From NCBI GenBank assembly GCA_964625765.1, contig CAZVCS010000002.1:1-45548 (forward strand): DNA of 45,548 nucleotides, given 5' to 3'. Position 1 is the first letter of the stretch. Every line of letters starts with the position of its first letter. The notes below the pieces were generated by a model. The model worked only from the letters and a program-made list of their open reading frames with translations, did no database searches and had not been told where the DNA came from. Below, piece by piece: positions 8,736 through 45,548 of the stretch. Source of the stretch: an uncultured Dehalococcoidales bacterium. GTDB taxonomy: Bacteria > Chloroflexota > Dehalococcoidia > GIF9 > AB-539-J10. A program made the position numbers and the translations under genes.

Positions 8736-8744
8736 TGGTATAAT
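8736..8744 (+). promoter_or_regulatory. extended -10 promoter element upstream of prs
   Basis: TGGTATAAT, 37 nt upstream of the prs ATG. SD GAGGAG lies between them. Confidence 0.5.
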
Positions 8745-8781
8745 GCTGACACGACCCCGTCGTGCCTGAGGAGCAAAGCGC

Positions 8782-9720: not shown

Positions 9721-9753
9721 CGGCGCGGCCGATATCGTGTACACTTACGAACC

Positions 9754-12402: not shown

Positions 12403-12461
12403 GGGGTCGACGTCGAGGCGCGTATCTCTCGGGTCGCGAGGGGATGGGCAGGAGGCACTCG

Positions 12462-12941: not shown

Positions 12942-13017
12942 CCTCCCTGGGCCATCGAAGCATGCGGCCCGGGCGTTGCGAGCACGACTTCTTGCCGGCG
13001 TACTATACTTTGGCTTT

Positions 13018-13689
13018 ATGGCTTCGACTGACACGCGCGCCATCATCGAGGAGCTCAGGGCTCACATCACCGCCGGGGACGACTGGTACCGGTGCCTGCT
13101 GCATGCCGCGCAGCAGTGGCCGCTGGCGGAGGAAGTCCTCGACGGCGAGCGCTTCCTCTACCTCATCGAGGGCGAAGCACTGGACATGCTGCGGCTGTGC
13201 GAGCGCATCAGCCTCGAGGTAGCCGACCTTGTGCCTGAAGAGCCGATGCTGGCGCTGCTGGCCAGTGACCGCCCGCCCCGGTCGTCCGACCGCGAAGCAC
13301 TTCGGGACCTCATCGGTCCGGAACGGTACAGGGCCTACCTGACGTTCATCTACGGCGTGATTGTCGAGGAACTGGTGGTGCAGGCAGTGCTGGAGGACCT
13401 CCGCCGGCGGAGGCGGACTTCGGGACTCACGCGCTATGACGCCGCGCTGGATGACGCATTCACGCACGTCTACGGCAGCACACGCGCGGAGCTGTTCGAC
13501 ACGTTCCGGCGCGAGCGCGGGCTGCGACCCCGCCGGAACGTCACGCTGACGCAGATGAAGGAGTTCACCTACTGGCTCTTCAAGCTGCGCCTGAGGAGCA
13601 TGGACAAATCGCGGGTCGCCAGCGACACGAAGCGCGCGCTGACGCTCCTGCACAGGTACATGAGCCACACTGGCAGGCGAGCAGCCTAG
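13018..13689 (+). CDS. hypothetical protein (no family recognised)
   Basis: 223 aa from MASTDTRAIIEEL... This frame has high G/C third-position bias and a balanced composition, unlike the antisense ORF 13003..13668. A TATACT hexamer (13004-13009) lies 8 nt upstream of the ATG. Its stop overlaps the valS stop (convergent genes). Confidence 0.55.
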   Translation: MASTDTRAIIEELRAHITAGDDWYRCLLHAAQQWPLAEEVLDGERFLYLIEGEALDMLRLCERISLEVADLVPEEPMLALLASDRPPRSSDREALRDLIGPERYRAYLTFIYGVIVEELVVQAVLEDLRRRRRTSGLTRYDAALDDAFTHVYGSTRAELFDTFRRERGLRPRRNVTLTQMKEFTYWLFKLRLRSMDKSRVASDTKRALTLLHRYMSHTGRRAA

Positions 13690-16373
13690 CCGAGGTCGCG
13701 CAGTTCCACCTCGAGTCGTTCGAGCTTGTCGCGCAGGCTGGCCGCAAGCTCGCGCTGCCTGGCCACGACGTCAGCCGGCGCCTTCTCCACGAAGACGGGG
13801 TCCACGAGCCGAGCGGCAATAGACTGCAGGCGGTCGCGGGTGGTCCCTGCTTCCTTCTCGAGCTGTGTCCGTATGCGCTCCGCCTCATCGGCTGACGCTT
13901 TGGCGACAACCACTTCGGCGTCCCCCAGGACGATAGCGCGTTCGGACTCCGTGCTGCCGGTTCGTGCGTCACGGTCCGAGACGTGATGAACGTGCGTGCG
14001 GGCCAGGCTTTCAATAGCAGGGACGAGCGCTCGCAGCCGCTCCAGCAGTTCGCTGCTGGTGTAGATTGACGCCTCCAGCCGGGTCTGGGGCTCGATCCGT
14101 CTCTCAGCCCGCGCGTTCCGGAGCGCCCGCACGACGTCGATAGCCGCGCCGACAACGCGCTCAGCCTCGGGGTCGTCCCACTCCGGTCGGCTCTCCGGAC
14201 ACGGAGATACCATGATGGAGCGAACCGACCCGCTGTCCGATTCCGCGGTCTGAAGCGACTGCCACAGCTCCTCGGTGACGAATGGCATGAACGGATGCAG
14301 CAGCCGGAGGGCGGCGTCAAGCACCGACACCAGATAGGGCGCGGGTGAATCGGTGCCGCTGGACGCCGCGCCGCCTGCACGGCGCATCCTCAGCTTGGCG
14401 AACTCGATGTACCAGTCGCAGAACTCGGACCAGAGGAAGTCCTGTACCTGCCGCTCAGCCTCTCCGAGCTGATACTCCGCCATCAGACCGTGAACCGACA
14501 TCGTGAGGCGATTCAATCGACTCAGAATCCATCGGTCCGTGATGTCGGCGGGCGCCGGCAGCGGCGGATATGTGCGCCCGGCCGTCGGCCGCCACTCCTC
14601 TGTGCTCTGCAACACGAACCTGGTGGCATTCCACACCTTGTTGACGAAGTTGCGACCGGCTTCAAGCTTGGCATCGCCGAGCGAGAGGTCGTTGCCCGGC
14701 GAGTTGCCGGTGGTGAGCGCGTACCTCAAGGCGTCGACGCCGTACTTTGCGATGGCGTCATCGGGCCTGATGACGTTCCCACGCATCTTGCTCATCTTCT
14801 GTCCCTGCTCGTCACGTATCAGCCCGTTGAGATACACGTATCTGAAGGGCACCTTGCCGGTGTCCTCGATTCCCATCATGATCATCCTGGCCACCCAGAA
14901 GAAGAGGATGTCGTACCCCGTCTCCATCATGGTGGTGGGATAGAAATAGCGCATGTCCTCGGTGTCGTCGGGCCAGCCCAGCGTCGAGTGCGGCCACAGC
15001 GCGGAGCTGAACCACGTGTCAAGCACGTCCGGGTCCTGCTCGATGCGGCTGCTGCCGCAGCCCGAACATGACGTCGGAGTCTCGACCGCCACGGTCAGAG
15101 CCCCGCAGTCGCTGCAGTACCACACCGGGATGCGGTGTCCCCACCACAATTGTCGACTGATGCACCAGTCCTTGATGGACTCCATCCAGGAGAAGTACAC
15201 CTTGGTGAAATGCTCCGGAATGATGCGGATCTCGCCGCTCCTGACAGCTTGAATGGCCGCCTCGGCCAGCGGCCTCGTATCAACGAACCACTGGAGGCTG
15301 ATGCTCGGCTCGACGGCCGTGCGGCACCGGCTGCAGTGACCGACCATGTGGGAGTACGGCTCGATGTGGTCGAGCAGCCCCTGACGTTGGAACTCTTCGA
15401 CCACGCGCTGGCGGCACGTCTGGCGGTCGAGCCCTTTGCAGGCGCCCGCCTCGGCATTCATGGTGCCGTCCTGGTTGAAGACGTTGACGTGGGGCAAGTT
15501 GTGCCGGTCTGCAACCTGCAGGTCAGTGGGGTCGTGGCTGGGCGTGATCTTCAGCGCTCCCGTGCCGAAGGTCGGGTCCACAGCGTCGTCAGCGATGACC
15601 GGTATCTCGCGGCCCGTGCCGGGTAGCCTGACGCGCCTTCCGATGGCGTTGCGGTAGCGCTCGTCCGCCGGACTCACCGCCACTGCCGTGTCACCAAAGT
15701 ACGTCTCGGGTCGCGTCGTCGCAATCGTGAGGAATCCGTCTCCGTCCACGAAAGGGTAGCGGAAGTAATACAGATGTCCCTCGGTGTCCTGGTGCTCGAC
15801 CTCGAGGTCGGATAGCGCCGTGCGGCAACGCGGGCACCAGTTCACCATGCGCTCGCCGCGGTAGATGCGACCCTTCTGGTAGAGGCGCACAAACGCGGTT
15901 CGCACCGCTCTGCTTGGGCCCTCGTCAAGCGTGAATGTGTCATGATCCCAGTCGCATGAGCACCCGAGAAGGTGGTGCTGCATCTCGATGGCGTGCCTGC
16001 TTTTCTGCGCCCTTGCCCAGGCGCGCTCGACGAACTTCTCCCGGCCGATGTCATATCGGGTCAGGCCCTCGCGGGCCAGGTCCTGCTCGACGAGCACCTG
16101 CGTCGCGATGCCGGCGTGGTCAGAGCCGGGTACCCAGAGCGTCGGTTCGCCAAGCATCCGGTGCCACCGGATCATGATGTCTTCCAGCGCCATCGTCAGC
16201 GCGTGCCCCACGTGCAACTCGCCGGTCACATTCGGTGGGGGCATCACGATGACGTACGGTGACCGGTCGGAGTCGACCCGGGGGCGGAAGAATCCAGTGG
16301 AGAGCCAGAAGTCATACCACTTCTTCTCGATCTTGCCCGGTTCGTACGCCTTTGCCAGTGTCTCGCGTTCCAA
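13686..16373 (-). CDS. valS: valine--tRNA ligase
   Basis: 895 aa. HIGH motif PPPNVTGELHVGHAL, KMSKS motif KMSKMRGN, a CP1 editing region and the C-terminal coiled-coil typical of ValRS. Confidence 0.97.
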   Translation of the reverse strand: MERETLAKAYEPGKIEKKWYDFWLSTGFFRPRVDSDRSPYVIVMPPPNVTGELHVGHALTMALEDIMIRWHRMLGEPTLWVPGSDHAGIATQVLVEQDLAREGLTRYDIGREKFVERAWARAQKSRHAIEMQHHLLGCSCDWDHDTFTLDEGPSRAVRTAFVRLYQKGRIYRGERMVNWCPRCRTALSDLEVEHQDTEGHLYYFRYPFVDGDGFLTIATTRPETYFGDTAVAVSPADERYRNAIGRRVRLPGTGREIPVIADDAVDPTFGTGALKITPSHDPTDLQVADRHNLPHVNVFNQDGTMNAEAGACKGLDRQTCRQRVVEEFQRQGLLDHIEPYSHMVGHCSRCRTAVEPSISLQWFVDTRPLAEAAIQAVRSGEIRIIPEHFTKVYFSWMESIKDWCISRQLWWGHRIPVWYCSDCGALTVAVETPTSCSGCGSSRIEQDPDVLDTWFSSALWPHSTLGWPDDTEDMRYFYPTTMMETGYDILFFWVARMIMMGIEDTGKVPFRYVYLNGLIRDEQGQKMSKMRGNVIRPDDAIAKYGVDALRYALTTGNSPGNDLSLGDAKLEAGRNFVNKVWNATRFVLQSTEEWRPTAGRTYPPLPAPADITDRWILSRLNRLTMSVHGLMAEYQLGEAERQVQDFLWSEFCDWYIEFAKLRMRRAGGAASSGTDSPAPYLVSVLDAALRLLHPFMPFVTEELWQSLQTAESDSGSVRSIMVSPCPESRPEWDDPEAERVVGAAIDVVRALRNARAERRIEPQTRLEASIYTSSELLERLRALVPAIESLARTHVHHVSDRDARTGSTESERAIVLGDAEVVVAKASADEAERIRTQLEKEAGTTRDRLQSIAARLVDPVFVEKAPADVVARQRELAASLRDKLERLEVELRDLG

Positions 16374-19585: not shown

Positions 19586-19590
19586 TTCTT

Positions 19591-21092
<1,502 letters not shown>

Positions 21093-24604: not shown

Positions 24605-25601
24605 CGAGCATGCGTTCGATGTTGTGGAAGTTCTGGTCGAGCCTGTGGTCGGTGATACGGTCCTGGGGAAAGTTGTAGGTACGGATCTTCTCTGAGCGGT
24701 CGCCGGTTCCGACCTGGCTGCGCCTGTCGCGGTCCTGCTTGTCCAGCACCTCCCGGTTCTTCAGGTCATACAGGCGGGCTCGCAGAACCGCCATTGCCTT
24801 GATGCGGTTCTTCAACTGCGAGCGCTCGTCCTGGCATACCGAGACGATGCCGGTGGGAATGTGGGTCAGACGTACTGCCGTTGCCACCTTGTTCACGTTC
24901 TGGCCGCCGGCGCCCCCCGAATGGAATATGTCGGTCCTGATATCCTCGGGGTTGATGTCTATCTCGACTTCCTCCGCCTGAGGCAGTACGGCGACCGTGG
25001 CTGCGGACGTGTGTATCCTTCCTGACGCTTCCGTCAGCGGCACCCGTTGCACACGGTGCACGCCCCTTTCATATTTGAGGCGGCTGAACGCCCCAGCGCC
25101 CCGGACCTCGAAGATAATCTCCTTGAAGCCTTTTGCGCCGCTGAGGGTGTTGTCCACGACCTCCAGGTCCCAGCCCTGTCTCTGCGCATACCGGGAATAC
25201 ATACGGAAAAGGTCGGCGGCAAAGAGCGAGGCTTCCTCGCCTCCGGTGCCCGCGCGAATCTCGACGATGACGTCCTTGCTATCGTTGGGGTCTGTCTCCA
25301 CGAGGAACTGGTGCAGACCGGCCTCGGACGCCGCGTGGCGCGCCTCGACGGCAGCCAGCTCTTCGCGGACGATGTGGCGCATCTCAGGGTCGGTCGCTTC
25401 ATGCAGCAAGCCGCGCACCTCTTCGAGTTCATGCTCCACCGCAAGGTAGCTGGCGTACGCGTGCGCCGCGTCCTCAAGCGCGGCATGTTCTCGCGCGAGG
25501 GATTGAAGCCGAGAGGGGTTCGTCGCGACGGCGGGGTCCGCCATCTGCTGTTCTATCTCGCGGTACCGCGAGAGCATGTTGCTAAGCTTCTCGTAGGCCA
25601 T
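24534..25601 (-). CDS. prfA: peptide chain release factor 1
   Basis: 355 aa. GGQ motif [12 protein letters not shown] and the RF1-type tripeptide region [17 protein letters not shown] (PxT). Confidence 0.96.
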
Positions 25602-25683
25602 GAGGACACTCCCCGGAATCGAAAGCGGACTGTAGTATACAGCACGAAGGAGGCCTGTGCCTCCGCAGGCAGAACGCGGGCTT

Positions 25684-26247
25684 CTAGTCGCCGTGCTGGA
25701 GGTCGAGAGACTGAAGGGCGACCTGATACGCCCGGAGCGTGCTCGAATCGTACAGGACGAAAGTTACGAGCCGCACAGGCTCCGGCTTGCCGCGCAGGAA
25801 GCTCAGCACCACTCGGAGCGCCGTGCCGGCCGCCTGCTGCACCGGGTAGCCATAGGCTCCGGTGCTGATGGAGGGAAATGCGACGGAGGCGAGCCCGAGC
25901 TCTCGGGCGAGCAGCAGAGACTCGCGATATGCGCTCGCCAGAATCTCCGGCTCCCCGTGGATTCCACCGCCCCAGATAGGTCCGACCGTGTGAATGACAT
26001 ACCTGGCATGAAGACGTCCGGCCGTGGTGGCGACCGCGCGACCCGGAGGCAGGGGCCCGGCAACAGCAACTATGGACCGGCACTCCTCCAGGATGGCAGG
26101 ACCGCCGGCGCGGTGAATGGCTCCATCGACGCCTCCTCCCCCGAGAAGTCCGGAGTTCGCTGCGTTCACAATGGCGTCCGCGGCCACCGCCGTGATATCC
26201 CCCTGCACGAGCTCCAGCGCTCCGCGACCTGTCTGTACCGTCATCAT
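25684..26247 (-). CDS. macro-domain protein (O-acetyl-ADP-ribose deacetylase-like)
   Basis: 187 aa. [35 protein letters not shown] and [10 protein letters not shown] are classic MacroD/YmdB-type motifs. Confidence 0.85.
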
Positions 26248-26336
26248 TCGATTGTCCGGTCTCCGTCCTGCGCCGCGTACGTTGCGCGCCGGCCGGGCAG
26301 CACGACAAGCATCGCGCCACCGTCACGGCTACGTCG

Positions 26337-26365
26337 TTGCCGCTCGACCCGACACCGAATATAAT
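26337..26365 (+). promoter_or_regulatory. sigma-70-type promoter of the 4-hydroxybutyryl-CoA dehydratase gene
   Basis: TTGCCG (26337-26342), 17-nt spacer, TATAAT (26360-26365). SD AAGGAGGA lies 8 nt before the ATG at 26410. Confidence 0.6.
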
Positions 26366-26409
26366 ACGGCACTGGAGCGCGCCACGGCGCATAAGGAGGA
26401 AGGCACCCA

Positions 26410-27879
26410 ATGGCTCTTAAGACTGCTCAACAGTACATCGACAGCCTGCGCAAGCTGAAGTCCGATGTGTGGCTCTTCGGCGAGAGAATCGAGAACTTCG
26501 TCGACCACCCGGTTGTTCGTCCCTCCATTAACGCTATCGCGTTGAGCTACAAGGTAGCTCACGAGCCGGAGTACGAGGACCTGGCAACGACGACGTCCAC
26601 GCTCACCGGAGAGAAGATCAACCGCTTCACTTCCTTGTTCATGAGTACGGATGACCTGGTCAAGAAGGTGAAGCTGCAGCGCGTGCTGGGACAGCGCACC
26701 GGATGCTGCTTTCAGCGCTGCGTCGGCATGGATGCCATCAACGCGGTCTTCAGCACGTCCTTTGAGACAGATGAGAAGTACGGCACCTCGTACCATGCTC
26801 GCTTCAGGGAGTGGCTGAAGTACATCCAGCAGAATGACCTGTGCGTCCAGGGGGCCATGACCGACGTGAAGGGCGACAGGGGACTGAGGCCGAGCCAGCA
26901 GCCCGACCCCGACATGTTCGTCCATGTCGTCGAGCGGCGCAAGGATGGTATCGTCATCCGCGGCGCGAAGGCCCATCAGACCGGCAGCGTCAACTCGCAC
27001 GAGATGCTCATCATGCCGACCCTTACCATGAGGGAAGGCGATGAGGACTACGCCGTGTGCTGTGCGCTGCCGTCTGACTCGAAGGGCGTGCACTTCATCT
27101 ATGGGCGTCAGTCCTGTGACAAGCGCAAGCTGGAAGAGGGCGACATCGACGTTGGCAACTACCAGTTCGGCGGACAGGAGGCTCTCACGGTGCTCGACGA
27201 CGTCTTCGTGCCATGGAGCAGGGTCTTCATGTGCGGGGAAGTTGACTTCTCGGGCATGGTGGTCGAGCGGTTTGCGAGCTATCACCGCCAGAGCTACGGT
27301 GGCTGCAAGCCTGGCATAGGCGATGTGTTGGTGGGCGCCACTGCCGCGATGACCGACTACAACAATGTGGCCAAGGCGGGGCACGTGCGTGATAAGATCG
27401 CGGAGATGAATCACCTCATCGAGACGCTGCACGCGTGTGGTCTGGCTGCGTCCACCCAGGGAACGAAGACGAAGGCGGGGAACTACCAGCCGGATATCCT
27501 GCTCGCCAACGTCTGCAAGATGAATGTGACCCGGTACCCTTACGAGCTGTGCCGTCTCGCCGAGGACCTCGCCGGCGGCGCCCTGGTCACCATTCCTTCG
27601 GAGTGTGACCTTCGCAGCCCCGAGATCGGCAAGTACGTGCAGAAGTACTTCAAGGGTGCGGGCACGGTCTCGGCTGAGGAGCGCCTGCGCATGCTGTCGC
27701 TCATCAACAGCATGACGTTCGGCCTGACTGCACCGAGCTACCGCACGGAGTCTATGCACGGCGCCGGCTCGCCGCAGGCGCAGAAGGTCATGATTGAGCG
27801 CCAGTCGAACATGGAGAACAAGAAGAAGCTGGCGCGCAGGCTGGCCGGTATCGACGAGCGCGAGAAGCTCACCGACTGA
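26410..27879 (+). CDS. abfD: 4-hydroxybutyryl-CoA dehydratase / vinylacetyl-CoA isomerase (AbfD family)
   Basis: 489 aa, HpaB/AbfD fold. Candidate [4Fe-4S] ligands fall at the positions described for Clostridium AbfD: C100-x3-C104 (GCCFQRCVG), then H292 and C299 (YHRQSYGGCK). Confidence 0.8.
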   Translation: MALKTAQQYIDSLRKLKSDVWLFGERIENFVDHPVVRPSINAIALSYKVAHEPEYEDLATTTSTLTGEKINRFTSLFMSTDDLVKKVKLQRVLGQRTGCCFQRCVGMDAINAVFSTSFETDEKYGTSYHARFREWLKYIQQNDLCVQGAMTDVKGDRGLRPSQQPDPDMFVHVVERRKDGIVIRGAKAHQTGSVNSHEMLIMPTLTMREGDEDYAVCCALPSDSKGVHFIYGRQSCDKRKLEEGDIDVGNYQFGGQEALTVLDDVFVPWSRVFMCGEVDFSGMVVERFASYHRQSYGGCKPGIGDVLVGATAAMTDYNNVAKAGHVRDKIAEMNHLIETLHACGLAASTQGTKTKAGNYQPDILLANVCKMNVTRYPYELCRLAEDLAGGALVTIPSECDLRSPEIGKYVQKYFKGAGTVSAEERLRMLSLINSMTFGLTAPSYRTESMHGAGSPQAQKVMIERQSNMENKKKLARRLAGIDEREKLTD

Positions 27880-27931: not shown

Positions 27932-28002
27932 TGTGTATAATGGCTGAAGGCGCGTTGACTCCCGGCTTGCGGTGGACGGCGGGCCTCCGACTGGAGAGTG
28001 AC

Positions 28003-33930: not shown

Positions 33931-34161
33931 CTAGCCCTGACCGGCGGTGGCGCTCCCGTCCTCCGTTGCCTTTCCGCGCCGCGTCTTCTTCACGGGCGGC
34001 GAACCATTCCGAAGCTCGGTGAACCGTCCTATCGGCGCAGAGTGGACGCTGCCGTCAGCTCGCTCGAAGAGCATCTTGGGCAGACCGTCCTGGTCGACGA
34101 AGATGTCGAGCACCTCGACCTCCTCTTCCTCGGTCCGATTCGGATGGTACTGCGCCTTCAT
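33931..34161 (-). CDS. small hypothetical protein (76 aa)
   Basis: MKAQYHPNRTEEEEVEVLDIF... Its ATG overlaps the TGA stop of the upstream HD gene (ATGA at 34158-34161). The frame has high G/C third-position bias. It is the C-terminal part of track ORF 33931..34407. Confidence 0.5.
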   Translation of the reverse strand: MKAQYHPNRTEEEEVEVLDIFVDQDGLPKMLFERADGSVHSAPIGRFTELRNGSPPVKKTRRGKATEDGSATAGQG

Positions 34162-35402
34162 TCCTGACGCACCGGTGATGCCGCGACGCCGTCCATGTGC
34201 GCGCGGCCCCCGCTTCCTGAGAACCACGAGTGGAGCGAGATCAGGTCGACCCCTGCGACGGCGCCTGACGCGTACTTCAGCGCAATCGCATTCATGGCCC
34301 GCTCCAGCTCGGGCGACGAAATGCCGTTCTCGCGCGCAAGGTACGCTTCCATGAAGGCCGCAAGGTCGTCGACCGCCTTCACAAGCTCGCCGTCGCGCGG
34401 GTTGCACTCATCGCTGTTGTAACACTGATCCATCTGGCAGGCGGAAGCATGGACGGTGGCGCCGCTGGCGGATGCGACGTTGCGGAACTCATCTTCCGTG
34501 AAGAGTCGGAGGTCGGCGTGCCAACCTTCCGGCACAAGCGGATAGACCTTCTCCTCCATCTCATCGCGCTCGTACGTCTTGATGAGCGTACTCAGACCCT
34601 TCACCGAGTGTTTGACCGGCGAGATGATGTCCCTGGTGAGAGCCTCGGGCAGGTCGTGAAAGAGGCCGGTGAAGTAGTTGTTCACGCACCGGCGAGGGCA
34701 GCAGCCCCGTTCAAGCGAAAGGAGGTACGACACCATGGCGACTATCAGCATGTGGCCGAGGACGGACGTCCGTGGAATCCGGTGGACATGGCTCCAACGG
34801 ACCTGAAAGCGCAGCAGACCACAGAGGTCTACAAAGCTACGCAGATTGGACCTCAGCAGCAACTCCCGTAGACCGGGCAGGTCGAGATACGTCTCCTGTT
34901 GCGAATCGAGGCGAGCGCCGATGCGGTCGATCTCGTGCCCGTCGGGGTTCGCCCGGCGGATGATGTCGAACTCCCACCGGGTGGCGAAGAAATGAGCCGC
35001 GTGCAGCACACGCTGGCAGTGAATCTCCTCAGCATCGGAGAAGTAGCGCCTGAACCGTTCGCAGAAACCGGCGCCCAGGGGCGCGATCGCGTTCTCCAGT
35101 TCGGAGTACACCCAGTCGTTCAGTTCCTGATACCTGACGGGGTCCTCCTTTATCTTGTAGAAGACCTGGGGCTTGAGGTCCGTCAGCACCAGGCGCTGCA
35201 AGTACTCGAAGATCCCGCCTTCGATGAGCGCGGGCCAGTCCATCCCCCTCGATTGCTGCTCGAACTTGCCGAGCACATACGCCACGACCATCTTGTGCGC
35301 CTGCTTGTCAAGCTCGGTCAGCTCGACCGGGCGTATCTGGTCGTTCCAGCGCTGCATGTATGCCGCGTTGAACAGCCGGATGAGGAGCTCTCGTGTCACC
35401 AT
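34158..35402 (-). CDS. HD-domain hydrolase (YfbR-like, apparently tandem HD-like repeats)
   Basis: 414 aa from MVTRELLIRLFNAAYMQRWND... A canonical unit is present (RFQVRWSHVHRIPRTSVLGHML ... LFHDLPEALTRDI). An N-terminal unit has RW...H but LTDL in place of HD. The upstream part of the 722-aa track ORF is antisense to the MBL gene, so I excluded it. Confidence 0.7.
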   Translation of the reverse strand: MVTRELLIRLFNAAYMQRWNDQIRPVELTELDKQAHKMVVAYVLGKFEQQSRGMDWPALIEGGIFEYLQRLVLTDLKPQVFYKIKEDPVRYQELNDWVYSELENAIAPLGAGFCERFRRYFSDAEEIHCQRVLHAAHFFATRWEFDIIRRANPDGHEIDRIGARLDSQQETYLDLPGLRELLLRSNLRSFVDLCGLLRFQVRWSHVHRIPRTSVLGHMLIVAMVSYLLSLERGCCPRRCVNNYFTGLFHDLPEALTRDIISPVKHSVKGLSTLIKTYERDEMEEKVYPLVPEGWHADLRLFTEDEFRNVASASGATVHASACQMDQCYNSDECNPRDGELVKAVDDLAAFMEAYLARENGISSPELERAMNAIALKYASGAVAGVDLISLHSWFSGSGGRAHMDGVAASPVRQE

Positions 35403-35500
35403 CGAACAGGGGGCCTTGTAGAAGCTTCGTCGCCGCATTATACACCGGCTCCCGGACAGTGCATGCCGTCTGCAGACTGGCAGGGCGTCGCTCGTCGTCA

Positions 35501-35509
35501 TGGTAGAAT
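35501..35509 (+). promoter_or_regulatory. extended -10 element upstream of the MBL-fold gene
   Basis: TGGTAGAAT, 43 nt upstream of the ATG at 35553. The divergent HD gene has TATAAT on the reverse strand at 35437-35442. Confidence 0.5.
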
Positions 35510-35552
35510 GTCTGGCCCTTGTCTCGAACCGAGAAGACCAGGAGGAGTTGGC

Positions 35553-36455
35553 ATGTGGCTGAAAGAGCCCTGCAAGGTGAACCAGTCTATAGACTTCATA
35601 GGCACGCATGAGTTGTGCTCGTATCTCGTGCGAGGCGACGACATACTCATCGTCGGTGGCAGCATGAGCCATGCGACTCCAGCGCTGAGACGCCAGCTCG
35701 ACGAAATGGCTCTTGACCCCGACCGCGTCAAGTACGCAGTCGTAACTCACTCGCATTTCGACCATTGTGGGGCTATTCCCTACTTCCGGGAGCGCTTTCC
35801 CAGGATGCAGGTGCTGGGAACCTCGGCAAGCGCGGAAGCACTGTCCAAGCCGAAGGTGGCCGCATATAACGCACGGGCCAATGACGATGCCGCCCAGCAG
35901 GCATGTGTTCTCGACCAGTGCCTGCATCTGTGCGATTGTCCGTCGGCACTGGCAATCGACCGCGTGGTCGCCGACGGTGAGCGGATAGACCTCGGCCGCG
36001 GTGTCTCGGTCGAGTTCTACGAAGTTCCCGGGCACAGCAAGTGCTGCGTCGCAACGTGGGTTCCTTCGTGCAGGGCGCTGTTCCCCACGGACACCAGCCC
36101 CCAGCCGGTTTCGAGTCATCTCGATCTGTCGTTTCCTTCGGCGCAGTTCGATTTCGACCGGTATGTCGCGTCGCTGCGGCGTCTGCTCGAGTTCGATGTC
36201 GACATCCTCGGAATGGACCACTACGGCGTGCTGCTGCATGAACAGGCCGGTGAATACCTGCGGCTGGGACTCGAGAAGACGCTGTCGTTCGGAGACGAGG
36301 TGCGTCGCAGATATGAAGAGAGTCACGACCTCGATGAGGTATCGCGCCAGTTCGCCCGTGAGGGACTTGCCAAGGTCCGCCTGCCGTTCATCACGGATGA
36401 GTTGATGTTCATCATCACGCGGGCGATGATCAAGTCCATCGTATCGGCGGACTGA
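35553..36455 (+). CDS. metallo-beta-lactamase-fold hydrolase
   Basis: 300 aa from MWLKEPCKV... SD GGAGGAG lies 5 nt upstream. HxHxDH motif THSHFDHCG and a later EVPGHS motif are present. Confidence 0.8.
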   Translation: MWLKEPCKVNQSIDFIGTHELCSYLVRGDDILIVGGSMSHATPALRRQLDEMALDPDRVKYAVVTHSHFDHCGAIPYFRERFPRMQVLGTSASAEALSKPKVAAYNARANDDAAQQACVLDQCLHLCDCPSALAIDRVVADGERIDLGRGVSVEFYEVPGHSKCCVATWVPSCRALFPTDTSPQPVSSHLDLSFPSAQFDFDRYVASLRRLLEFDVDILGMDHYGVLLHEQAGEYLRLGLEKTLSFGDEVRRRYEESHDLDEVSRQFAREGLAKVRLPFITDELMFIITRAMIKSIVSAD

Positions 36456-39604: not shown

Positions 39605-39647
39605 GCGGCAGGGGCAGTGAATGGTAGCAGGTTCGCCGCCCCGGGGT

Positions 39648-39656
39648 TGGTATAAT
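39648..39656 (+). promoter_or_regulatory. extended -10 element upstream of the GT2 operon
   Basis: TGGTATAAT. The ATG at 39655 used by the ORF track lies inside this box, so I prefer the next ATG at 39688 as the start. Confidence 0.5.
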
Positions 39657-39687
39657 GGCACGGCAGCCCGACTCACTCGACCAGCCT

Positions 39688-40389
39688 ATGGACACGAGCA
39701 GCAGTCCGCAGACAGCGACTATCGTGGTCGTGATTCCCGCCCTGAATGAGGCATCCACCATCGGCATGGTGCTCGACGAGATCCCTGTCGACGAGTTGTC
39801 CAACCAGGGCTACCGTACGCGAGTGCTGGTGGTGGACAACGGCAGCACCGATGGGACCTCCGATGTCGCCTTGGGGCGGCAGGCGGAAGTCGTCGTAGAG
39901 CCGCTGCGAGGCAAGGGCAGGGCGATGCGGAGGGCGTTTCAGGAAGCCAGGGGAGACTACGTCTTCATGCTGGATGGCGATGCCACGTATCCGGCAACAC
40001 ATATCCCGGAGATGGTGGCTCTGCTGGCGGATGGCTGCGACGTTGTCACCGGTTCACGACTGAGGGGCAGGCGGGCCCCTGGCTCCATCAGTGCGCTCAA
40101 CGTGGTTGGCAACCACCTGCTGACATGGCTCGCCTGTCTGCTCTACGGCCGGAGGATCAGCGATCTCTGCACCGGGTACTGGGGCTTCCGCGCCGCCGTG
40201 CTGCCGCTTCTCCACCTTCGCGCAAGCGGATTCAATCTCGAGGCCGAGCTGTTCGCCGAGGTCGTCCGAAACCACCTTTCGCTGCGTGAAGTCCCCATCA
40301 ACTACCGTCGCCGGCCTACGCCCACCAAGCTGCGGTCGCTTCGCGACGGAGTTCGGATTGCCCGGACGCTCTTCACGAAGAGGTTCTGA
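39688..40389 (+). CDS. GT2 glycosyltransferase, polyprenyl/dolichyl-phosphate sugar synthase-like (DPM1/Alg5/AglK-like)
   Basis: 233 aa. IVVVIPALNEASTIG, VLVVDNGSTDGTSDVA, GKGRAM, and the DXD-type motif FMLDGDATY. No TM segment is evident. Confidence 0.78.
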   Translation: MDTSSSPQTATIVVVIPALNEASTIGMVLDEIPVDELSNQGYRTRVLVVDNGSTDGTSDVALGRQAEVVVEPLRGKGRAMRRAFQEARGDYVFMLDGDATYPATHIPEMVALLADGCDVVTGSRLRGRRAPGSISALNVVGNHLLTWLACLLYGRRISDLCTGYWGFRAAVLPLLHLRASGFNLEAELFAEVVRNHLSLREVPINYRRRPTPTKLRSLRDGVRIARTLFTKRF

Positions 40390-40393
40390 CGCG

Positions 40394-41407
40394 ATGGCTG
40401 ACGTGGGTGGCGATACGGCCGCGGAGCCGGCAGGCGACGGAGGTGTGCGAGGCTGCAGCATCTCTCTCGTCATACCGTGTTACAGCCTTGAACGCTCGGC
40501 CGACCTGCTTGCGCTGCTCGAGAGCATCGAAAGGCAGACCGCGCCCATCGATGAGTTGCTCGTCGTCGTTCAGAAGTCCGAGCCATTGGTGGCTCTTGTT
40601 CGACAGCGGCTGACTGCGATGCAACTCCCCGAGGCCCGCGCCATCTACCTTGATGCCGAGCCGCGCGTCACGGTGGCGCGGAACCACGCGGTGCGCCAGG
40701 CCCGGGGAGATGTCATCGCGTTCGCCGACGACGATTCAGTCCTGGCCGAGAGTTGGTGTAGCGAGACGAGGCGGTTCTACGCCGAGTTCCCGGAGGCGGT
40801 GGGGGCGGCGGGGGCGATATTGCCGCTGTGGGACACACTATCGATGGCCTGGTTTCCGCGAGAACTGTACTGGATGCTGTCCTGCACCTACTGGCGCTCG
40901 GAGCGACCTGAGGTCGTCCGCAATGGGTACGGCGCCAACATGTCCTTCCGCCGTGCCGCATTCGATAACGGACGGTTATTCAGCGAGACTCTCGGCATCT
41001 CAGGGTGGGGTGGGAGTGGATGGCACGGCGTTGGAGGGGAGGAACCGGAGTTCGCGAGCCGCGTCACCAGGGAGACCGGTGGTCTGATCTACTTCGTACC
41101 GGACATAATCGCATGGCATCGGGTGCGCCGGTACCGGCTGGCCCTGCCTGCGCTCGCGCGCCGTGCCTACTGGGAAGGGCGGTTCAAGGCTGCCTTTCGC
41201 AGAGAGGGAACAGGGTCCGAGAGACCGCTCGAGACGGAACGCCAACTGCTTGCGATGCTTCCGCGGAGCGGTGCTTCCCGCCTGCGTCAGTTTGGTTCGA
41301 CTCCGTTGCTCGCCTTGCGTCAGCAGGGCGTCGTGTGCTTTTCACTCGCCTGCGTGGCAGCCGGTTTCGTAGAGGGAACGGCAAGGCGCACTCGCATCCG
41401 GCACTGA
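40394..41407 (+). CDS. GT2 glycosyltransferase
   Basis: 337 aa from MADVGGD..., starting 4 nt after the previous stop. ISLVIPCYSLERSADLL, DXD motif AFADDDSV, and NGYGANMSFRR. The upstream part of track ORF 40286..41407 overlaps the previous gene. Confidence 0.78.
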   Translation: MADVGGDTAAEPAGDGGVRGCSISLVIPCYSLERSADLLALLESIERQTAPIDELLVVVQKSEPLVALVRQRLTAMQLPEARAIYLDAEPRVTVARNHAVRQARGDVIAFADDDSVLAESWCSETRRFYAEFPEAVGAAGAILPLWDTLSMAWFPRELYWMLSCTYWRSERPEVVRNGYGANMSFRRAAFDNGRLFSETLGISGWGGSGWHGVGGEEPEFASRVTRETGGLIYFVPDIIAWHRVRRYRLALPALARRAYWEGRFKAAFRREGTGSERPLETERQLLAMLPRSGASRLRQFGSTPLLALRQQGVVCFSLACVAAGFVEGTARRTRIRH

Positions 41408-41499
41408 GGCAGAGGCTTTCTCCGTGACCGCATGGCCGCGCCGGCGCTCACGACAGGCCTATTCCAGCCTCGTCAAGGAGACTGCTGGCGCGCCGGACG

Positions 41500-42783
41500 C
41501 TACCGTGCGTCCCATGCGCCTCTGCGCAGTGCCAGGATCAGCACCGCACTGACGCCGTGCAGGATCAGGTACACCAACCCGACGGCCTCCAGCCCGCCGG
41601 TCCGGATGAGCCACCAGCTCAGCCCGATGATGGCAATCGTCAGAGCTGTTCTCCACGCAAGCACTTCATTGAGTTGACCGCGCACCCGGAGCGCGGCGAA
41701 GTGCACGCGCTCGATGGTCATCGGGAGACTGGTCACGGCAAGGATGCGCAACAGATCGAGAGAACGTTCAGAGTAGCCCGCGCCGAAAGTGAAGAGCACC
41801 CATCCTCCGAAGAGCAACAGGAGCAAGCATGCCGGGATCAGAAGGGCGTAGCTCATTATCAATGCCTGGCTCACGTGTCGTCGAAGCGCACGTTTGTCGT
41901 AGGAAGCTTCAGCGAAGAGCGACTGGGCCACAGACCCGGGGATGAGGTACAGCACAGTGGCCACCGCCCACGCAACGTAGAAGAAGCCGTTCTCCTCGGG
42001 GCCGAGCACCGTGATGACTATAAGAGGCATGGCATACCGTGGCATCGTGGTGACCAGCGTGATGGCATAGCTCAGACCCGAGAAGCCCCAGGCCCTCCGA
42101 ACCAGCCTGGCGCCAAAGGCTGGCTTGAACGCGTAGCCTGGTATGGCGCGCGGTACGAGCACAAGAAGTGCAACCACTGCGGCAGCCGCCGTAGCGATGC
42201 CCCAGCTCGCCACGATGCCGAAGGCATGGAAGTGGCTGACGAAGAGCAGGGGAAGCCCGACCTTCACGAGGCTGAAAGCCGTGTCCTTGATCACCAGCAG
42301 GTGCGACGTGCGGCGGGCGACGAGTGCACCGCCAGCGGTGCTGGAGACGTTCGCAGCTACGCAGAAGCACAGAAACGCCGCCAGGAACACGGGCTGGCGC
42401 GCGACGAAGCTGATCTCCGTCGACCACGTTGCCAAACCTGCGGCGCTGACCAGCGAGACAACAAGCGCGGCGATTGCCGAATACGTCAGGCACGTGTTGA
42501 GCAACTCGACGGGAGTCTCAGAGCGCGAAAGAAATCGCACCAGAAACGAGTCAAGGCCGATATGTGCGGCAAGGGCAACAAGTGAGATGGTCGAGATGAT
42601 TGCCGAGCTGTAGCCGACCTCGGCCTCTGTGTAGAAGCGCGCCACCACCACCCAGAAGAAGAACCCGAGCAGGGCCATGCCCGCCTGGGAAAGCATGATG
42701 AAGAAGGCGTTGGAGTAGAGCGAAGAGCGGGCACTGTGGCGGACGAAGTCCACATAGCGGGTCAGCTTGCCGTTGTCTTGCAC
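41500..42783 (-). CDS. MOP-superfamily oligosaccharide/polysaccharide flippase (Wzx/AglR-like)
   Basis: 427 aa and multi-spanning (about 12 hydrophobic segments), with the composition and organisation of Polysacc_synt family flippases. GTG start with GGAG 9 nt upstream. It begins 42 nt downstream of the OST stop. Confidence 0.75.
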   Translation of the reverse strand: MQDNGKLTRYVDFVRHSARSSLYSNAFFIMLSQAGMALLGFFFWVVVARFYTEAEVGYSSAIISTISLVALAAHIGLDSFLVRFLSRSETPVELLNTCLTYSAIAALVVSLVSAAGLATWSTEISFVARQPVFLAAFLCFCVAANVSSTAGGALVARRTSHLLVIKDTAFSLVKVGLPLLFVSHFHAFGIVASWGIATAAAAVVALLVLVPRAIPGYAFKPAFGARLVRRAWGFSGLSYAITLVTTMPRYAMPLIVITVLGPEENGFFYVAWAVATVLYLIPGSVAQSLFAEASYDKRALRRHVSQALIMSYALLIPACLLLLLFGGWVLFTFGAGYSERSLDLLRILAVTSLPMTIERVHFAALRVRGQLNEVLAWRTALTIAIIGLSWWLIRTGGLEAVGLVYLILHGVSAVLILALRRGAWDAR

Positions 42784-42825
42784 GACTCAGTCTCCGCTTG
42801 CACCGCCGGGTTGGGGCGCCGAGGT

Positions 42826-45168
42826 TCACACGCCTGCAACCTGGAAGACCCTCACTGCCGGGATGTCACGTCCACTGACGTCGGTCGTTTCGTGCGACTC
42901 GAACACGAGGGTGTACTGTGCCAGGGCATCCAGTGGTACGCACGACACAGACGGGTCCGAACTCACCAGCCTCAAGTGGTCGCTGCCATCGTTCTGCATG
43001 AATGCCAGCGCCTCGTCGTAAGAAGGGAACCGCTCGAGACCGACGATGAGTTTCTCCGCTCCGGGGAGGCCCCCGCTGTCTTCGTACCGGATGACGCGAA
43101 AGTTCTCCGGCGCCGCAGCCTTCCCTGCCAGACACTGCAAACGCACGAGCGTGCTCTGAAAGTACGCCGGGTAATACAGGACGATGCTCTCGAGTCCCGA
43201 CCCGGAGGTTCGTTGCGAGTAGATGTCGAAGTACTCGCCGTGCTCCTCTCCCACCCACGCAGCCACCGCGTTGAACGTCGCGACGCTGGTGCGTGCATCG
43301 GTGACGACGTAGCGCGAGTCGAGCGACTTGAGCATCTCGATTCCCTCAGCCTCGGACGTCGACAGGAAGTACCGGGCCGCCGTCTTCGCTCCCTCCTGAA
43401 AAGGATTGGCGATAGGGATGCGATGGCTCACGCGTGTTATCCAGTGGCCGTAGTCCCACCATGCCATGACGCTCCACGCCTGCTCAGGGTAGTCGTAATC
43501 TTCGCGCGCGGGAGGCGGGTCGTACAACCGGTAGTAGCTTCCTGGCTCGAGCGGGTCGGGAGTGTTGTCTCGCAGCCACTCCAGGGTTTCGTACCAGCCT
43601 GCTGTCATGGTCGCGCGCTCAACGGCGAAATTGCGGGCCATGCTCAGGCATGGCGCGCCGATGGTCACGATGAACGCCGTGACGAGCGCCGCGACAAGGG
43701 TCGCTGCACCACGTCTCTCCGCTTGCCGGGCACGCGCCGTCCTGCGAGCCGCCTTGCTGCCGGTGGCGGCGGCAGCCTTGACACTCCGTGCGAGTGATTG
43801 GACACGCGACTGGACGTAGTCGCTACCCCAGATCCAGGCTGCAAGCAATCCCGTCAGGATGGCCGCACTAACAGAGTAGTAGTAGCCGAACCGGCGCTGC
43901 AGCAGAACCGCCAACAGCATACAGAGGCTCCACACCACGAAGAGCGTGACGTCGTTCCCGTGAGGGGCGCGCCGCGAGCGCAGCAGAAGAACGAGAGCCA
44001 GAATCGATGCTGGAAGCACGGTGACGAAGTTCGTCCACGCGACGCGCAGCGTGAAGTGCCCCCCCGGCAGAAAGAGTGGGTGCATCTCGGTGATGGTGAG
44101 ACCGGTCCCGGTCGGCACCAGGAAGTCAATCGCACTTCGCGCGTACTGCAGCACAGCCGGCGCGACCAGCGCGATGGCACAGAGACAGAGCAGGACGAGG
44201 CTGCACAGCGCTATCAGGAGCCTTCTCGGCGACCACTGGCGACGACGGGCAAGTACGCCCAGTCCCTTCAGGGCCGCCGGAGCCGCGATTGTCGCAGTCA
44301 GGGCGGCAATGTAGAGCGCCGGCATCCAGTGAGTAGCAATGAGCGGACTGACCATCAGACCGCCGATCAGCGTTGCGGTCGAACAGACCACCACCACGTC
44401 ATCGGTGCCGGAGCCGCGCACGTAGCTGTGTACTGAGCGTACGACCGTGTAGGCCAGTATGACGGCGAGCAACAGCAGGCCGCCGCGCCAGCCCACAAGA
44501 TAGAGCCCGAGCGAAACGCCGGACAGACAGGAGTAGAGCAGGGTGCGCCGGGCCGAACGTACTCCTCGAGTGTGGAAGCTATCCAGTGTCACGTTCTCGG
44601 CGCGGGCGGCTCGCGTGGCGAGTAGCATGAACAGCAGAGTCAGGGTTGAGAAGAGGGCCTCGGTCATGTGGTGGTCGGTGAATCCGAAGAGCGACCGCGA
44701 AAGGAACTCTCCGGGCATTGTTGCCAGCACGAGAGCGGCGACGGCTCCCGCGACGATACCGCCGAGGCGTCGCGCGATGAAGTACGCCGGCACAATGGTG
44801 AGCGTTCCTGCCAGCGCCGGATACAGAGCGCCGGCCATGTCCACGGCGTGAACCGAGGGGTTGAGTCCCCCGATGAGCATAGACGTAATGGCAATGAGCC
44901 ACCGGGTGAGGGGGTGGAACGGGGGTTCGACTCCGTGAGGATAGAAGGTGTACGGGTCGAACGCAGTCGTGTGTGGGAAATTCGCGAGGAGGTTGTCCAC
45001 CAGTCGCATGTGGTACCAGCCGTCGAACTCGCGGAACCACACGTTGCCGTCGACAACGACGTTCGGATAGGGCCACGCGATGCGAACAGCCAGCGCGATG
45101 GCCACGCAGATGCCGATGACCATCAGGGCAGCCACGGAGTCAGAGGACGTCAGGCGATTGTGCTGCAT
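42826..45168 (-). CDS. STT3/AglB/PglB-family oligosaccharyltransferase (GT-C fold, CAZy GT66), archaeal AglB-like motif set
   Basis: 780 aa. The N-terminal ~520 aa are polytopic membrane and the C-terminal ~260 aa are soluble. All catalytic hallmarks are present in order: EFD (res 47-49, nt 45022-45030), FGFTDHH (D165/H167, nt 44668-44676), TITE = TIXE (res 358-361, nt 44086-44097), and WWDYGHWI (res 570-577; WWDYG at nt 43447-43461). Confidence 0.9.
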   Translation of the reverse strand: MQHNRLTSSDSVAALMVIGICVAIALAVRIAWPYPNVVVDGNVWFREFDGWYHMRLVDNLLANFPHTTAFDPYTFYPHGVEPPFHPLTRWLIAITSMLIGGLNPSVHAVDMAGALYPALAGTLTIVPAYFIARRLGGIVAGAVAALVLATMPGEFLSRSLFGFTDHHMTEALFSTLTLLFMLLATRAARAENVTLDSFHTRGVRSARRTLLYSCLSGVSLGLYLVGWRGGLLLLAVILAYTVVRSVHSYVRGSGTDDVVVVCSTATLIGGLMVSPLIATHWMPALYIAALTATIAAPAALKGLGVLARRRQWSPRRLLIALCSLVLLCLCAIALVAPAVLQYARSAIDFLVPTGTGLTITEMHPLFLPGGHFTLRVAWTNFVTVLPASILALVLLLRSRRAPHGNDVTLFVVWSLCMLLAVLLQRRFGYYYSVSAAILTGLLAAWIWGSDYVQSRVQSLARSVKAAAATGSKAARRTARARQAERRGAATLVAALVTAFIVTIGAPCLSMARNFAVERATMTAGWYETLEWLRDNTPDPLEPGSYYRLYDPPPAREDYDYPEQAWSVMAWWDYGHWITRVSHRIPIANPFQEGAKTAARYFLSTSEAEGIEMLKSLDSRYVVTDARTSVATFNAVAAWVGEEHGEYFDIYSQRTSGSGLESIVLYYPAYFQSTLVRLQCLAGKAAAPENFRVIRYEDSGGLPGAEKLIVGLERFPSYDEALAFMQNDGSDHLRLVSSDPSVSCVPLDALAQYTLVFESHETTDVSGRDIPAVRVFQVAGV

Positions 45169-45191
45169 CTTCGTCGTGGGCGGCAGGCGCG

Positions 45192-45220
45192 ATTATAGGG
45201 GAAGGTAGAGACACACGCAA
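45192..45220 (-). promoter_or_regulatory. sigma-70-type promoter of the OST-flippase operon
   Basis: Reverse strand: TTGCGT (45215-45220), 17-nt spacer, TATAAT (45192-45197). It lies 23 nt upstream of the ATG at 45168. Confidence 0.55.
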
Positions 45221-45494
45221 TGGACCGGGCAGGCTGGTGGCTCAGGTTGCGCGACGCGGTAACCGTCGACGGTGCCTCGCTGAGTCGAGACCTGGGCGCA
45301 GCTTTGCCCCGAGGTTCGATGGAGAAGTGTGATGAGCGGCGGAGCCGGCGTGGCGACCACGGCAGCAAGAACCACAGGCGCCGGCGGATGATGGTCACCA
45401 AGGATCAGATGCAGGAAGAACGTATGTCGCACGCAGCTAGGGCGACGGAGAAGCGGTGAAACTACTTGAACGTAGCAGAGAAGGGCGGGGCCAT

Positions 45495-45548
45495 GAGCCG
45501 CCAGGGGATCGAACCCTGAACCTGCTGATTAAGAGTCAGCTGCTCTAC
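45495..45548 (-). tRNA. tRNA-Lys (anticodon CTT), 3' two-thirds only (5' end lies beyond the window)
   Basis: Reverse strand ...GTAGAGCAGCTGACTCTTAATCAGCAGGTTCAGGGTTCGATCCCCTGGCGGCTCA. Anticodon arm GCTGA-CTCTTAA-TCAGC, T arm CAGGG-TTCGATC-CCCTG, acceptor 3' strand GCGGCTC plus discriminator A. CCA is not encoded. Confidence 0.85.

Follow-up and report, generated by a model that had tools for sequence, protein, structure and literature searches.

We analysed a four-gene candidate locus for protein N-glycosylation that lies in a 45,548-nt stretch of DNA (contig CAZVCS010000002.1 of assembly GCA_964625765.1, from an uncultured Dehalococcoidales bacterium of the phylum Chloroflexota); the whole of this stretch is referred to below as the window. 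On the forward strand, the gene for a glycosyltransferase of family 2 (GT2), here named GT2a, is followed by a second GT2 gene, GT2b, which starts 4 nt past the GT2a stop codon. On the reverse strand, the gene for an AglB-type oligosaccharyltransferase (OST) is followed by the gene for a Wzx-type flippase, with 42 nt between the OST stop and the flippase start. The two pairs are convergent and their ends lie 92 nt apart (Table 1). A preliminary description of this DNA had reported four adjacent genes in two convergent pairs, and we find all four open reading frames (ORFs) intact at the coordinates it had proposed, with both intergenic gaps as it gave them. Gene integrity, family and subfamily, catalytic residues, fold, synteny and the bacterial host were all computed here.

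Table 1. Genes and promoter-like elements of the four-gene locus, in window coordinates.
Feature	Position	Strand	Description
GT2a	39688..40389	+	233 aa; AglJ/DPM1-like polyprenyl-phosphate hexosyltransferase, predicted initiating enzyme; longer ORF from ATG 39655 possible
GT2b	40394..41407	+	337 aa; AglG-like GT2, predicted to extend the lipid-linked hexose by a second sugar
Flippase	41500..42783	-	427 aa; Wzx-type, MOP superfamily, predicted mover of the lipid-linked glycan across the membrane
OST	42826..45168	-	780 aa; AglB-type (STT3/AglB/PglB family), predicted N-glycosylating enzyme
Extended -10 element TGgTATAAT	39647..39656	+	promoter-like, ahead of the GT2a-GT2b operon
TATAAT -10 hexamer	45192..45197	-	promoter-like, ahead of the OST-flippase operon

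The 780-residue protein is an AglB-type OST. It matches the NCBIfam model TIGR04154 over nearly the full length with a score of 567 bits, against a cutoff of 450. This model (oligosaccharyl transferase, archaeosortase A system-associated) describes a euryarchaeal subfamily, and the 21 members of the clade that were tested all match it as well (21/21, E <= 1e-50). On the Pfam models for the STT3 N-terminal region and for the AglB_core-like domain, the window protein scores 112 and 89 bits, respectively. Its best sequence match among solved structures is Archaeoglobus fulgidus AglB-L (3WAJ/5GMY), with an E-value of 6e-62, and the same search of PDB sequences returned no match to PglB at E <= 0.001. 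Alignment with AglB-L places D49, D165, H167, E361 and R426 of the window protein opposite D47, D161, H163, E360 and R426, respectively. In the AglB-L structures, D47, D161 and H163 coordinate the catalytic metal, and their counterparts in the window protein presumably do so as well. Likewise, T358-I359-T360-E361 aligns with T-I-A-E360 of AglB-L, which is the TIXE motif of external loop 5, and W570-W-D-Y-G574-H-W-I is identical to the WWDYGHWI of AglB-L. When the window protein was aligned with 21 Chloroflexota homologues, which are 32-74% identical to it overall, D49, D165, H167, I359, E361 and R426 were found to be invariant in 21 of 21, as were the W, W, D and G of the WWDYG motif.

The predicted structure points to the same family. 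An AlphaFold2 model of the OST (predicted local distance difference test score, pLDDT, 85; predicted template-modelling score, pTM, 0.86) has a GT-C fold that is closest to those of known OSTs, in keeping with their architecture of an N-terminal domain of about 13 transmembrane segments and a C-terminal extracytoplasmic globular domain. A Foldseek search with this model ranked AglB-L first, with template-modelling (TM) scores of 0.73-0.74, followed by eukaryotic STT3 at about 0.64 and by PglB at 0.50-0.53 (ranks 17-19). DPY19, ArnT, PMT, ALG and WaaL all fell below PglB, with WaaL at rank 36 and an E-value of 0.08. The top match, 7E9S, is, going by its title, an AglB with bound dolichol lipid. 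Since the ranking runs from AglB-L through STT3 and PglB down to DPY19, ArnT and PMT, placement of the protein in another GT-C family fails. Each of the other GT-C families considered (ArnT, PMT, DPY19, ALG and WaaL) is ruled out by the fold ranking together with the profile scores; YfhO is not among the 50 listed fold matches, with no YfhO structure compared directly. The STT3/AglB assignment in the preliminary description is therefore upheld by the profile, which places the protein within TIGR04154 above the curated cutoff, by the model, which ranks AglB-L ahead of PglB, and by motif residues that correspond one-to-one to those of AglB-L and are conserved in 21 relatives. Judged by its sequence and its model, the enzyme would transfer a lipid-linked glycan to the Asn of N-X-S/T.

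The 427-residue product of the gene downstream of the OST is a Wzx-type flippase of the MOP superfamily, and a lipid-linked glycan is its predicted substrate. Its Pfam scores lie just above the cutoffs, at 29.8 bits for Polysacc_synt (cutoff 28.2) and 30.0 bits for Polysacc_synt_3 (cutoff 23). Because a PDB sequence search with this protein gave no match, it was assigned by fold. The best fold match of its model (pLDDT 88) is the lipid III flippase WzxE, with TM scores of 0.76-0.79 and a root-mean-square deviation of 3.7 A, followed by MurJ and MATE proteins. The Polysacc_synt match and WzxE as the best fold match agree with the MOP/Wzx-type call made in the preliminary description. We found no archaeal counterpart of this flippase in the archaeal aglB loci examined. 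On a 493-kb contig from a relative (locus L001, positions 12480-13728), the flippase downstream of the OST appears as two overlapping tblastn pieces and no intact gene is called, and a separate short-read contig that carries an identical OST (L002, 5178-6473) holds an intact flippase gene of 431 codons. The split gene is either an assembly frameshift or a pseudogene.

Profile searches confirmed that both forward-strand genes encode GT2 enzymes, as the preliminary description had it, with Pfam Glycos_transf_2 scores of 79 bits for GT2a and 53 bits for GT2b. The best NCBIfam match of GT2a is AglJ (TIGR04182), at 180 bits over positions 2-216 of the 293-position model and below the cutoff of 325, and the next is the haloarchaeal dolichyl-phosphate hexose transferase family, at 119 bits. 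Bacterial polyprenyl-phosphate transferases score much more weakly (PpgS, 48 bits; ArnC, 32 bits). Among PDB sequences, GT2a is best matched by the Pyrococcus furiosus Dol-P-Man synthase 5MLZ (E = 1e-11). GT2b is best matched by AglG (NF041394, named 'glucosyl-dolichyl phosphate glucuronosyltransferase'), with 135 bits over positions 3-302 of the 304-position model against a cutoff of 440; the next family reaches 56 bits. A hydropathy plot of GT2b shows a single C-terminal hydrophobic segment, residues 312-330, and a PDB sequence search with GT2b gave no match. As both enzymes score below the equivalog cutoffs, we refer to them as AglJ-like and AglG-like and not as members of those families.

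Genes of these two kinds also accompany aglB in archaea. AglJ equivalogs, which score 437-440 bits over the full length, lie directly beside aglB in Methanocellales and in Ca. Mnemosynella, and GT2a shares 40% identity with one true AglJ equivalog encoded beside an archaeal aglB. AglG-like genes lie beside aglB in Methanolobus and Halorientalis; the Methanolobus copy scores 364 bits on the AglG model, under its cutoff of 440, and is 31% identical to GT2b over 291 residues. In Haloferax volcanii, the GT2 enzyme AglJ begins the glycan on dolichyl-monophosphate (PMC3871713). Since an AglJ-type start uses a monophosphate carrier, no phosphoglycosyltransferase is required. The caveat raised in the preliminary description, that the window holds no initiating phosphoglycosyltransferase, is thereby resolved, as an AglJ-like GT2a needs no enzyme of the WecA, PglC or AglH type. 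A search with GT2a returned 2840 matches at E <= 1e-10, where a like search with the OST gave 77, and the best 120 matches of GT2a supplied no outgroup, all of them being Chloroflexota-like and at least 55% identical.

The window itself is bacterial. It carries a full-length 16S rRNA gene (1487 bits) together with genes for SecA, RNase Y, YmdB and RF-1/PrmC and the hrcA-grpE-dnaK genes, which bears out the earlier claim of bacterial surroundings, and it also encodes ValRS, CoaBC/CoaX, CorA, ThyX and FabF. The GC fraction is flat, at 0.62-0.64, over the four-gene locus and both of its flanks. The gene order DnaJ…YggS-GT2a-GT2b-flippase-OST, with 0 to 4 extra sugar genes between GT2b and the flippase, recurs on independent contigs that include ones of 71, 85, 108, 493 and 751 kb, and the named relatives are metagenome-assembled genomes (MAGs) labelled 'Dehalococcoidia bacterium'. 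Because the same order is found on independent Dehalococcoidia contigs of up to 751 kb, chimerism is excluded.

We counted linkage in about 27 Chloroflexota loci with at least 2 kb of sequence downstream of the OST. The flippase lies immediately downstream of the OST in 15 of them, and the full OST-flippase-GT2b-GT2a set is present in 9 or 10, including members with 32-37% OST identity and different flanks. In two relatives, the interval that separates the flippase from GT2b (L001, 13840-17619; L003, 13849-17624) is filled by genes for an RmlC-like dTDP-sugar isomerase, an epimerase/reductase, a third GT2 and a DRL_cat dehydrogenase-like protein, which suggests lineage-specific longer glycans with a 6-deoxyhexose. 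In loci that lack the module, RmlA, RmlB and RmlD, or other nucleotidyltransferases, adjoin the OST. Seven neighbourhoods were annotated with Pfam (L001, L003, L004, L085-L087 and, in part, L008), and no Wzy, Wzz, WaaL or phosphoglycosyltransferase family was detected in any of them. Nor did these seven hold an ABC-type lipid flippase; ABC importers for amino acids or oligopeptides lie upstream in L001, L003 and L086. Since nucleotide-sugar genes adjoin the OST and none of those four families does, the OST stands in a context of glycan building and not of polysaccharide polymerisation. Thus, the comparison with related genomes that the preliminary description had proposed finds the gene order kept and the neighbourhoods free of Wzy, Wzz and WaaL. 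In the close relatives L001, L003 and L004, a signal peptidase I gene (Peptidase_S26) is the divergent neighbour about 450 bp upstream of the OST; the corresponding place in the window holds a partial tRNA (45494-45548) and the end of the contig.

When GTDB was scanned with a single genome for each species, an AglB-type OST turned up in at least 30 species representatives of the Chloroflexota, whose labels are Dehalococcoidia, Dehalococcoidales, Dehalococcoidaceae or Chloroflexota. The next-best loci, at 26-34% identity, belong to Methanocellales, Methanosarcinales, Methanophagales (ANME-1), Syntrophoarchaeum, Methanothrix, Archaeoglobi and Halobacteria. Searched exhaustively with HMMER, a set of 1.84 billion cluster representatives yielded 782 at E <= 1e-30; many of these are about 770-810 residues long and, like the bacterial clade, align right up to the C-terminus. 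A neighbour-joining tree of 86 sequences, built without outgroups, groups the bacterial sequences in one clade (72/100 bootstrap replicates), next to the AglBs of Methanocellales, Methanosarcinales, ANME-1, Archaeoglobi and Halobacteria, and recovers the subclade of the window protein in 100/100. These sequence relationships suggest one ancient inter-domain transfer of the OST. The clade is deeply diverged (identities fall to about 31%), its GC content is native and its flanks are conserved, all of which indicates an old acquisition followed by vertical descent; the module was probably taken up in a single ancient event from a Methanotecta-type archaeon, with vertical inheritance within Dehalococcoidia thereafter. 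As the tree has no outgroups, we infer the direction of the transfer and the exact donor. A Methanotecta origin has been given for the archaellum clusters of Dehalococcoidia and Anaerolineae (PMC12488501), and the donor range of the OST agrees with it.

The same scan gave some observations on individual loci. The OST of a 'Thermodesulfobacteriota' MAG (L062) nests among Methanosarcinales, and that of a 'Verrucomicrobiota' MAG (L045) nests within the Dehalococcoidia clade; both lie on contigs of about 3 kb and are probably binning errors in public MAGs. Loci of the Methanosarcinales type (L046, L054, L056, L064 and L066) carry two or three aglB paralogues in tandem. Most bacterial loci, unlike these tandem archaeal ones, have a single OST copy, and L058 has two partial OST matches. 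The tandem aglB genes, and the PGF-CTERM-like tails near them, agree with the archaeal description of the TIGR04154 family.

Reading the genes, the predicted structures and the synteny together, we put the probability that the locus encodes a euryarchaeal-type, AglB-dependent protein N-glycosylation pathway operating in a Dehalococcoidia bacterium at roughly 70%. In the pathway that we propose, GT2a would move a hexose from a nucleotide sugar to polyprenyl monophosphate on the membrane's cytoplasmic side, yielding polyprenyl-P-hexose, and GT2b would extend this product by a second sugar, which by analogy would be a hexose or a hexuronic acid. The Wzx-type flippase would then bring this lipid-linked glycan to the outer side, where the AglB-type OST would transfer it en bloc to the Asn of N-X-S/T in secreted or surface proteins. 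During this last step, the OST would use a divalent metal held by D49, D165 and H167, along with the loop that bears E361 of the TIXE motif, and the WWDYG pocket would read the Ser/Thr at position +2. Relatives insert extra sugar genes, such as dTDP-rhamnose enzymes and a further GT2, into the same frame. From these comparisons we infer activity, the identities of the sugars, a linkage through monophosphate, the kind of polyprenol and the acceptor proteins, and S-layer proteins, archaellins and solute-binding proteins are plausible candidate acceptors. For the class as a whole, we lean slightly towards the broader view that many Dehalococcoidia N-glycosylate their surface proteins through AglB, with a monophosphate-linked glycan on a bacterial polyprenol, that the system was taken from Methanotecta in the wave of transfer that brought the archaellum, and that archaellins and S-layer proteins are likely acceptors.

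Several observations count against an operating N-glycosylation pathway. The DK-type motif of the OST is degenerate: the window protein has D624-A-R-T-S-V-A-T where AglB-L has D-I-E-M-E-T-G-K, and, among the 21 clade members, D624 is invariant, 14 carry T and 7 carry M at position 627, and position 631 is occupied by K (9 members), T (6), A (3) or S (3). The reading of the sequon could therefore differ. GT2a consists of the catalytic domain only and has no equivalent of the C-terminal transmembrane hairpin, about 70 residues long, of archaeal AglJ, and the shortfall of GT2a and GT2b against the AglJ and AglG equivalog cutoffs belongs here as well. Bacteria normally make undecaprenyl phosphate and not dolichyl phosphate. 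In about 12 of the 27 Chloroflexota loci, the OST has no adjoining flippase or GT2 genes, so the four genes are not an obligate unit, and, because there are only two glycosyltransferases at the locus, the glycan may be completed by genes elsewhere. Every carrier genome found in the scan is a MAG and none is a cultured isolate. Finally, no acceptor protein was identified in the bacterial loci: regular-expression scans of about 20 kb per genome found neither archaellin N-termini nor PGF-CTERM tails in these loci or in the window, and PGF-CTERM-like tails turned up in archaeal loci only (L046, L054, L063 and L081). In two distant Dehalococcoidia, secreted proteins with LTD, fn3/PurAc_N and PKD/Big_9 domains adjoin the OST (L086, 6393-10319; L008, 5505-6716). 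Those of L086 carry 1-5 sequons each, which is uninformative, and it is possible that the L086 and L008 proteins are surface acceptors.

Some of these observations would also fit four genes that do not form one pathway, with GT2a as a general polyprenyl-phosphate-sugar synthase of the GtrB/DPM1 kind, the flippase serving a polysaccharide and the OST using a glycan made elsewhere. The loci that have an OST without neighbouring flippase or GT2 genes favour this arrangement, as do the far greater abundance of GT2a-type proteins (2840 matches against 77 for the OST), the sub-cutoff equivalog scores and the finding that Haloferax AglR is implicated in the flipping of Dol-P-mannose and not of the main glycan (PMC3871713). 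However, the tight order OST-flippase-GT2b-GT2a persists as OST identity falls from 75% to 32% and as the flanks change, AglJ equivalogs or AglG-like genes adjoin aglB in the nearest archaea too, and the best families of the two GT2 enzymes are the first two enzymes of the AglB pathway, so that we regard four unrelated functions as unlikely. It is distinctly improbable that the AglB homologue has instead been re-purposed, whether for a non-protein acceptor such as a lipid or a cell-wall polymer, for Ser/Thr, or for mere hydrolysis to free oligosaccharide. Its metal-binding and catalytic residues and its WWDYG motif are invariant over deep divergence, its fold is closest to that of a proven N-OST, and we know of no STT3-family member with a non-Asn acceptor. 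Such a change of function would nevertheless be in keeping with the degenerate DK-type motif of the window protein and the variation of that motif in the clade, with the lack of identified acceptor proteins in the loci scanned, and with the putative O-linked, not N-linked, glycans of the Chloroflexota archaellin that has been studied, in an organism not shown to carry the OST (PMC12488501).

An O-antigen or exopolysaccharide export cluster of the Wzx/Wzy-dependent type, in which the GT-C protein would act as ligase or polymerase, might be read from database records that call the flippase a 'lipopolysaccharide biosynthesis protein' or an 'O-antigen/teichoic acid export membrane protein' and from the dTDP-rhamnose genes near the locus in relatives. 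We give it very little weight, since the annotated neighbourhoods contain no Wzy, Wzz, WaaL or initiating phosphoglycosyltransferase family, WaaL is 36th in the fold search, and the GT-C protein scores above the cutoff of a curated model for an OST subfamily. That archaeal DNA was joined to a bacterial contig by an error of assembly or binning is scarcely credible. The two apparently mis-binned contigs of about 3 kb in the scan (L062 and L045) speak for it, but the locus shares its 45.5-kb contig, which is of uniform GC content, with a bacterial 16S rRNA gene, SecA, RNase Y and dnaK, the junctions from DnaJ…YggS through GT2a, GT2b and the flippase to the OST recur on contigs of 71 to 751 kb from independent assemblies, and the bacterial OSTs form a clade of their own, whose identity to any archaeal AglB is no more than 28-34%.

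The N-glycosylation pathway proposed here most closely recalls the Agl system of Haloferax. H. volcanii builds the first four sugars of its glycan on dolichol phosphate with AglJ, AglG, AglI and AglE, after which the glycan is flipped and transferred by AglB (PMC3871713). By analogy, a GT2 would start on polyprenyl monophosphate, a second GT2 would extend the glycan, a Wzx-like protein would take part in flipping and AglB would deliver to Asn; among curated families, GT2a and GT2b match AglJ and AglG best, and the OST shares its NCBIfam subfamily with the enzymes of haloarchaea. The locus differs from the Haloferax system in its bacterial host, in having two glycosyltransferases in place of four plus AglD and AglS, in a GT2a without the C-terminal hairpin of AglJ and GT2 scores under the equivalog cutoffs, and in a lipid that is presumably a bacterial polyprenol and not dolichol. 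Compared with the AglB-L structures (3WAJ, 5GMY and 7E9S), the window OST is about 21-22% identical in structural alignment and about 90 residues shorter.

With the Campylobacter pgl system, the locus shares an enzyme superfamily, a bacterial host and, by analogy, the transfer en bloc of a flipped lipid-linked glycan to N-X-S/T. In pgl, the phosphoglycosyltransferase PglC takes the first step and forms a diphosphate linkage with undecaprenyl phosphate, and flipping relies on the ABC-type PglK. Unlike pgl, the locus has an OST of the AglB type and only two GT2 enzymes and a Wzx-type flippase, with no phosphoglycosyltransferase and no ABC-type flippase. The view put forward in the preliminary description, that the locus resembles archaeal agl clusters more than pgl, holds good, with GT2a closest to AglJ and GT2b to AglG. 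A further parallel is the transfer of the archaellum into Chloroflexota, which involved the same class of recipient, the same kind of donor (Methanotecta-type Euryarchaeota) and, likewise, an archaeal cell-surface system (PMC12488501). The machine is a different one, however, and that paper makes no mention of AglB; the accessions of the OST carriers are absent from its supplements (PMC12488501).

Both operons have a promoter-like element at their head. There are six TATAAT hexamers on the two strands of the 45.5-kb window, compared with 1.4 expected, and two of the six precede the two operons. One (39651-39656, forward strand) lies 32 nt upstream of the ATG at 39688 in an extended -10 context, and the other (45192-45197, reverse strand) lies 24 nt upstream of the OST ATG at 45168. 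The start of GT2a at 39688 is favoured over the alternative at 39655 because the upstream TATAAT overlaps the ATG at 39655 and because GT2a homologues are 227-233 residues long. A scan for the sigma-70 -35/-10 consensus found no promoter upstream of either operon and reported neither TATAAT box; its two matches both lie inside the flippase gene, at chance level. The earlier claim of a promoter-like element for each operon thus stands for the -10 boxes, given the TATAAT count, and not for complete -35/-10 promoters. A terminator scan found nothing within the 92-nt convergent gap. Two more of the TATAAT hexamers adjoin genes, at 26360-26365 (forward strand), about 50 nt upstream of the hpaB ATG at 26410, and at 27936-27941 (forward strand), overlapping the thyX ATG at 27940. 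These positions hint at promoters dominated by the -10 element, and possibly at a leaderless thyX transcript, in the window organism.

Elsewhere in the window, the 16S rRNA gene (19590-21091, forward strand) is isolated, with no spacer tRNAs and no 23S or 5S rRNA gene in the window and with rny directly after it (next gene at 21355). The rRNA genes of the window organism are therefore unlinked, a layout that is also that of cultured Dehalococcoidia. A 722-codon ORF (34158-36326, reverse strand) has as its sole recognisable domain a C-terminal HD_3/YfbR-like one (residues 503-681), and its N-terminal 500 residues have no Pfam match. Five further long ORFs, all on the reverse strand, have no Pfam match (7435-8709, 8719-9744, 12174-13046, 13003-13668 and 25553-26410). 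The opposite strand also holds overlapping ORFs of similar length at these five, and their coding strand and frame are ambiguous.

The enzyme family, the chemistry and the logic of the pathway are already known. What is new is the host domain and the compact hybrid module, in which an archaeal-type OST is combined with AglJ-like and AglG-like glycosyltransferases, a truncated initiating enzyme and a Wzx-type flippase. To our knowledge, OST-dependent N-glycosylation in Bacteria has been studied only for the PglB of Campylobacterota and some Desulfobacterota, and in the full-text literature searched no paper was found to connect Chloroflexota, Dehalococcoidia or SAR202 with AglB, STT3 or an oligosaccharyltransferase. 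NCBI already gives such proteins the name 'oligosaccharyl transferase, archaeosortase A system-associated [Dehalococcoidia bacterium]', a correct automatic annotation, and the JGI pipeline likewise labels them as archaeosortase-A-associated OSTs in Dehalococcoidia MAGs. The preliminary description had held the system to be experimentally undescribed for this lineage; this survives with respect to the literature searched, and the novelty is smaller than claimed in that NCBI already names the OST and the gene is widespread in Dehalococcoidia MAGs.

If the proposed pathway is real, it would be the first case of OST-dependent N-glycosylation in Bacteria outside the PglB lineage, and the first in a monoderm or S-layered phylum. 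If active, it would mean that the archaeal version of the pathway, too, has passed from one domain to another and has long been kept there, and it would offer a handle on whether an archaeal OST works with bacterial polyprenyl carriers. Its minimal two-glycosyltransferase module would also be a compact candidate for glyco-engineering. For the organisms themselves, an active pathway would add an envelope-biogenesis system to the archaeal surface machines in Chloroflexota, such as archaella (PMC12488501), and would bear on how S-layered Dehalococcoidia build their envelopes.

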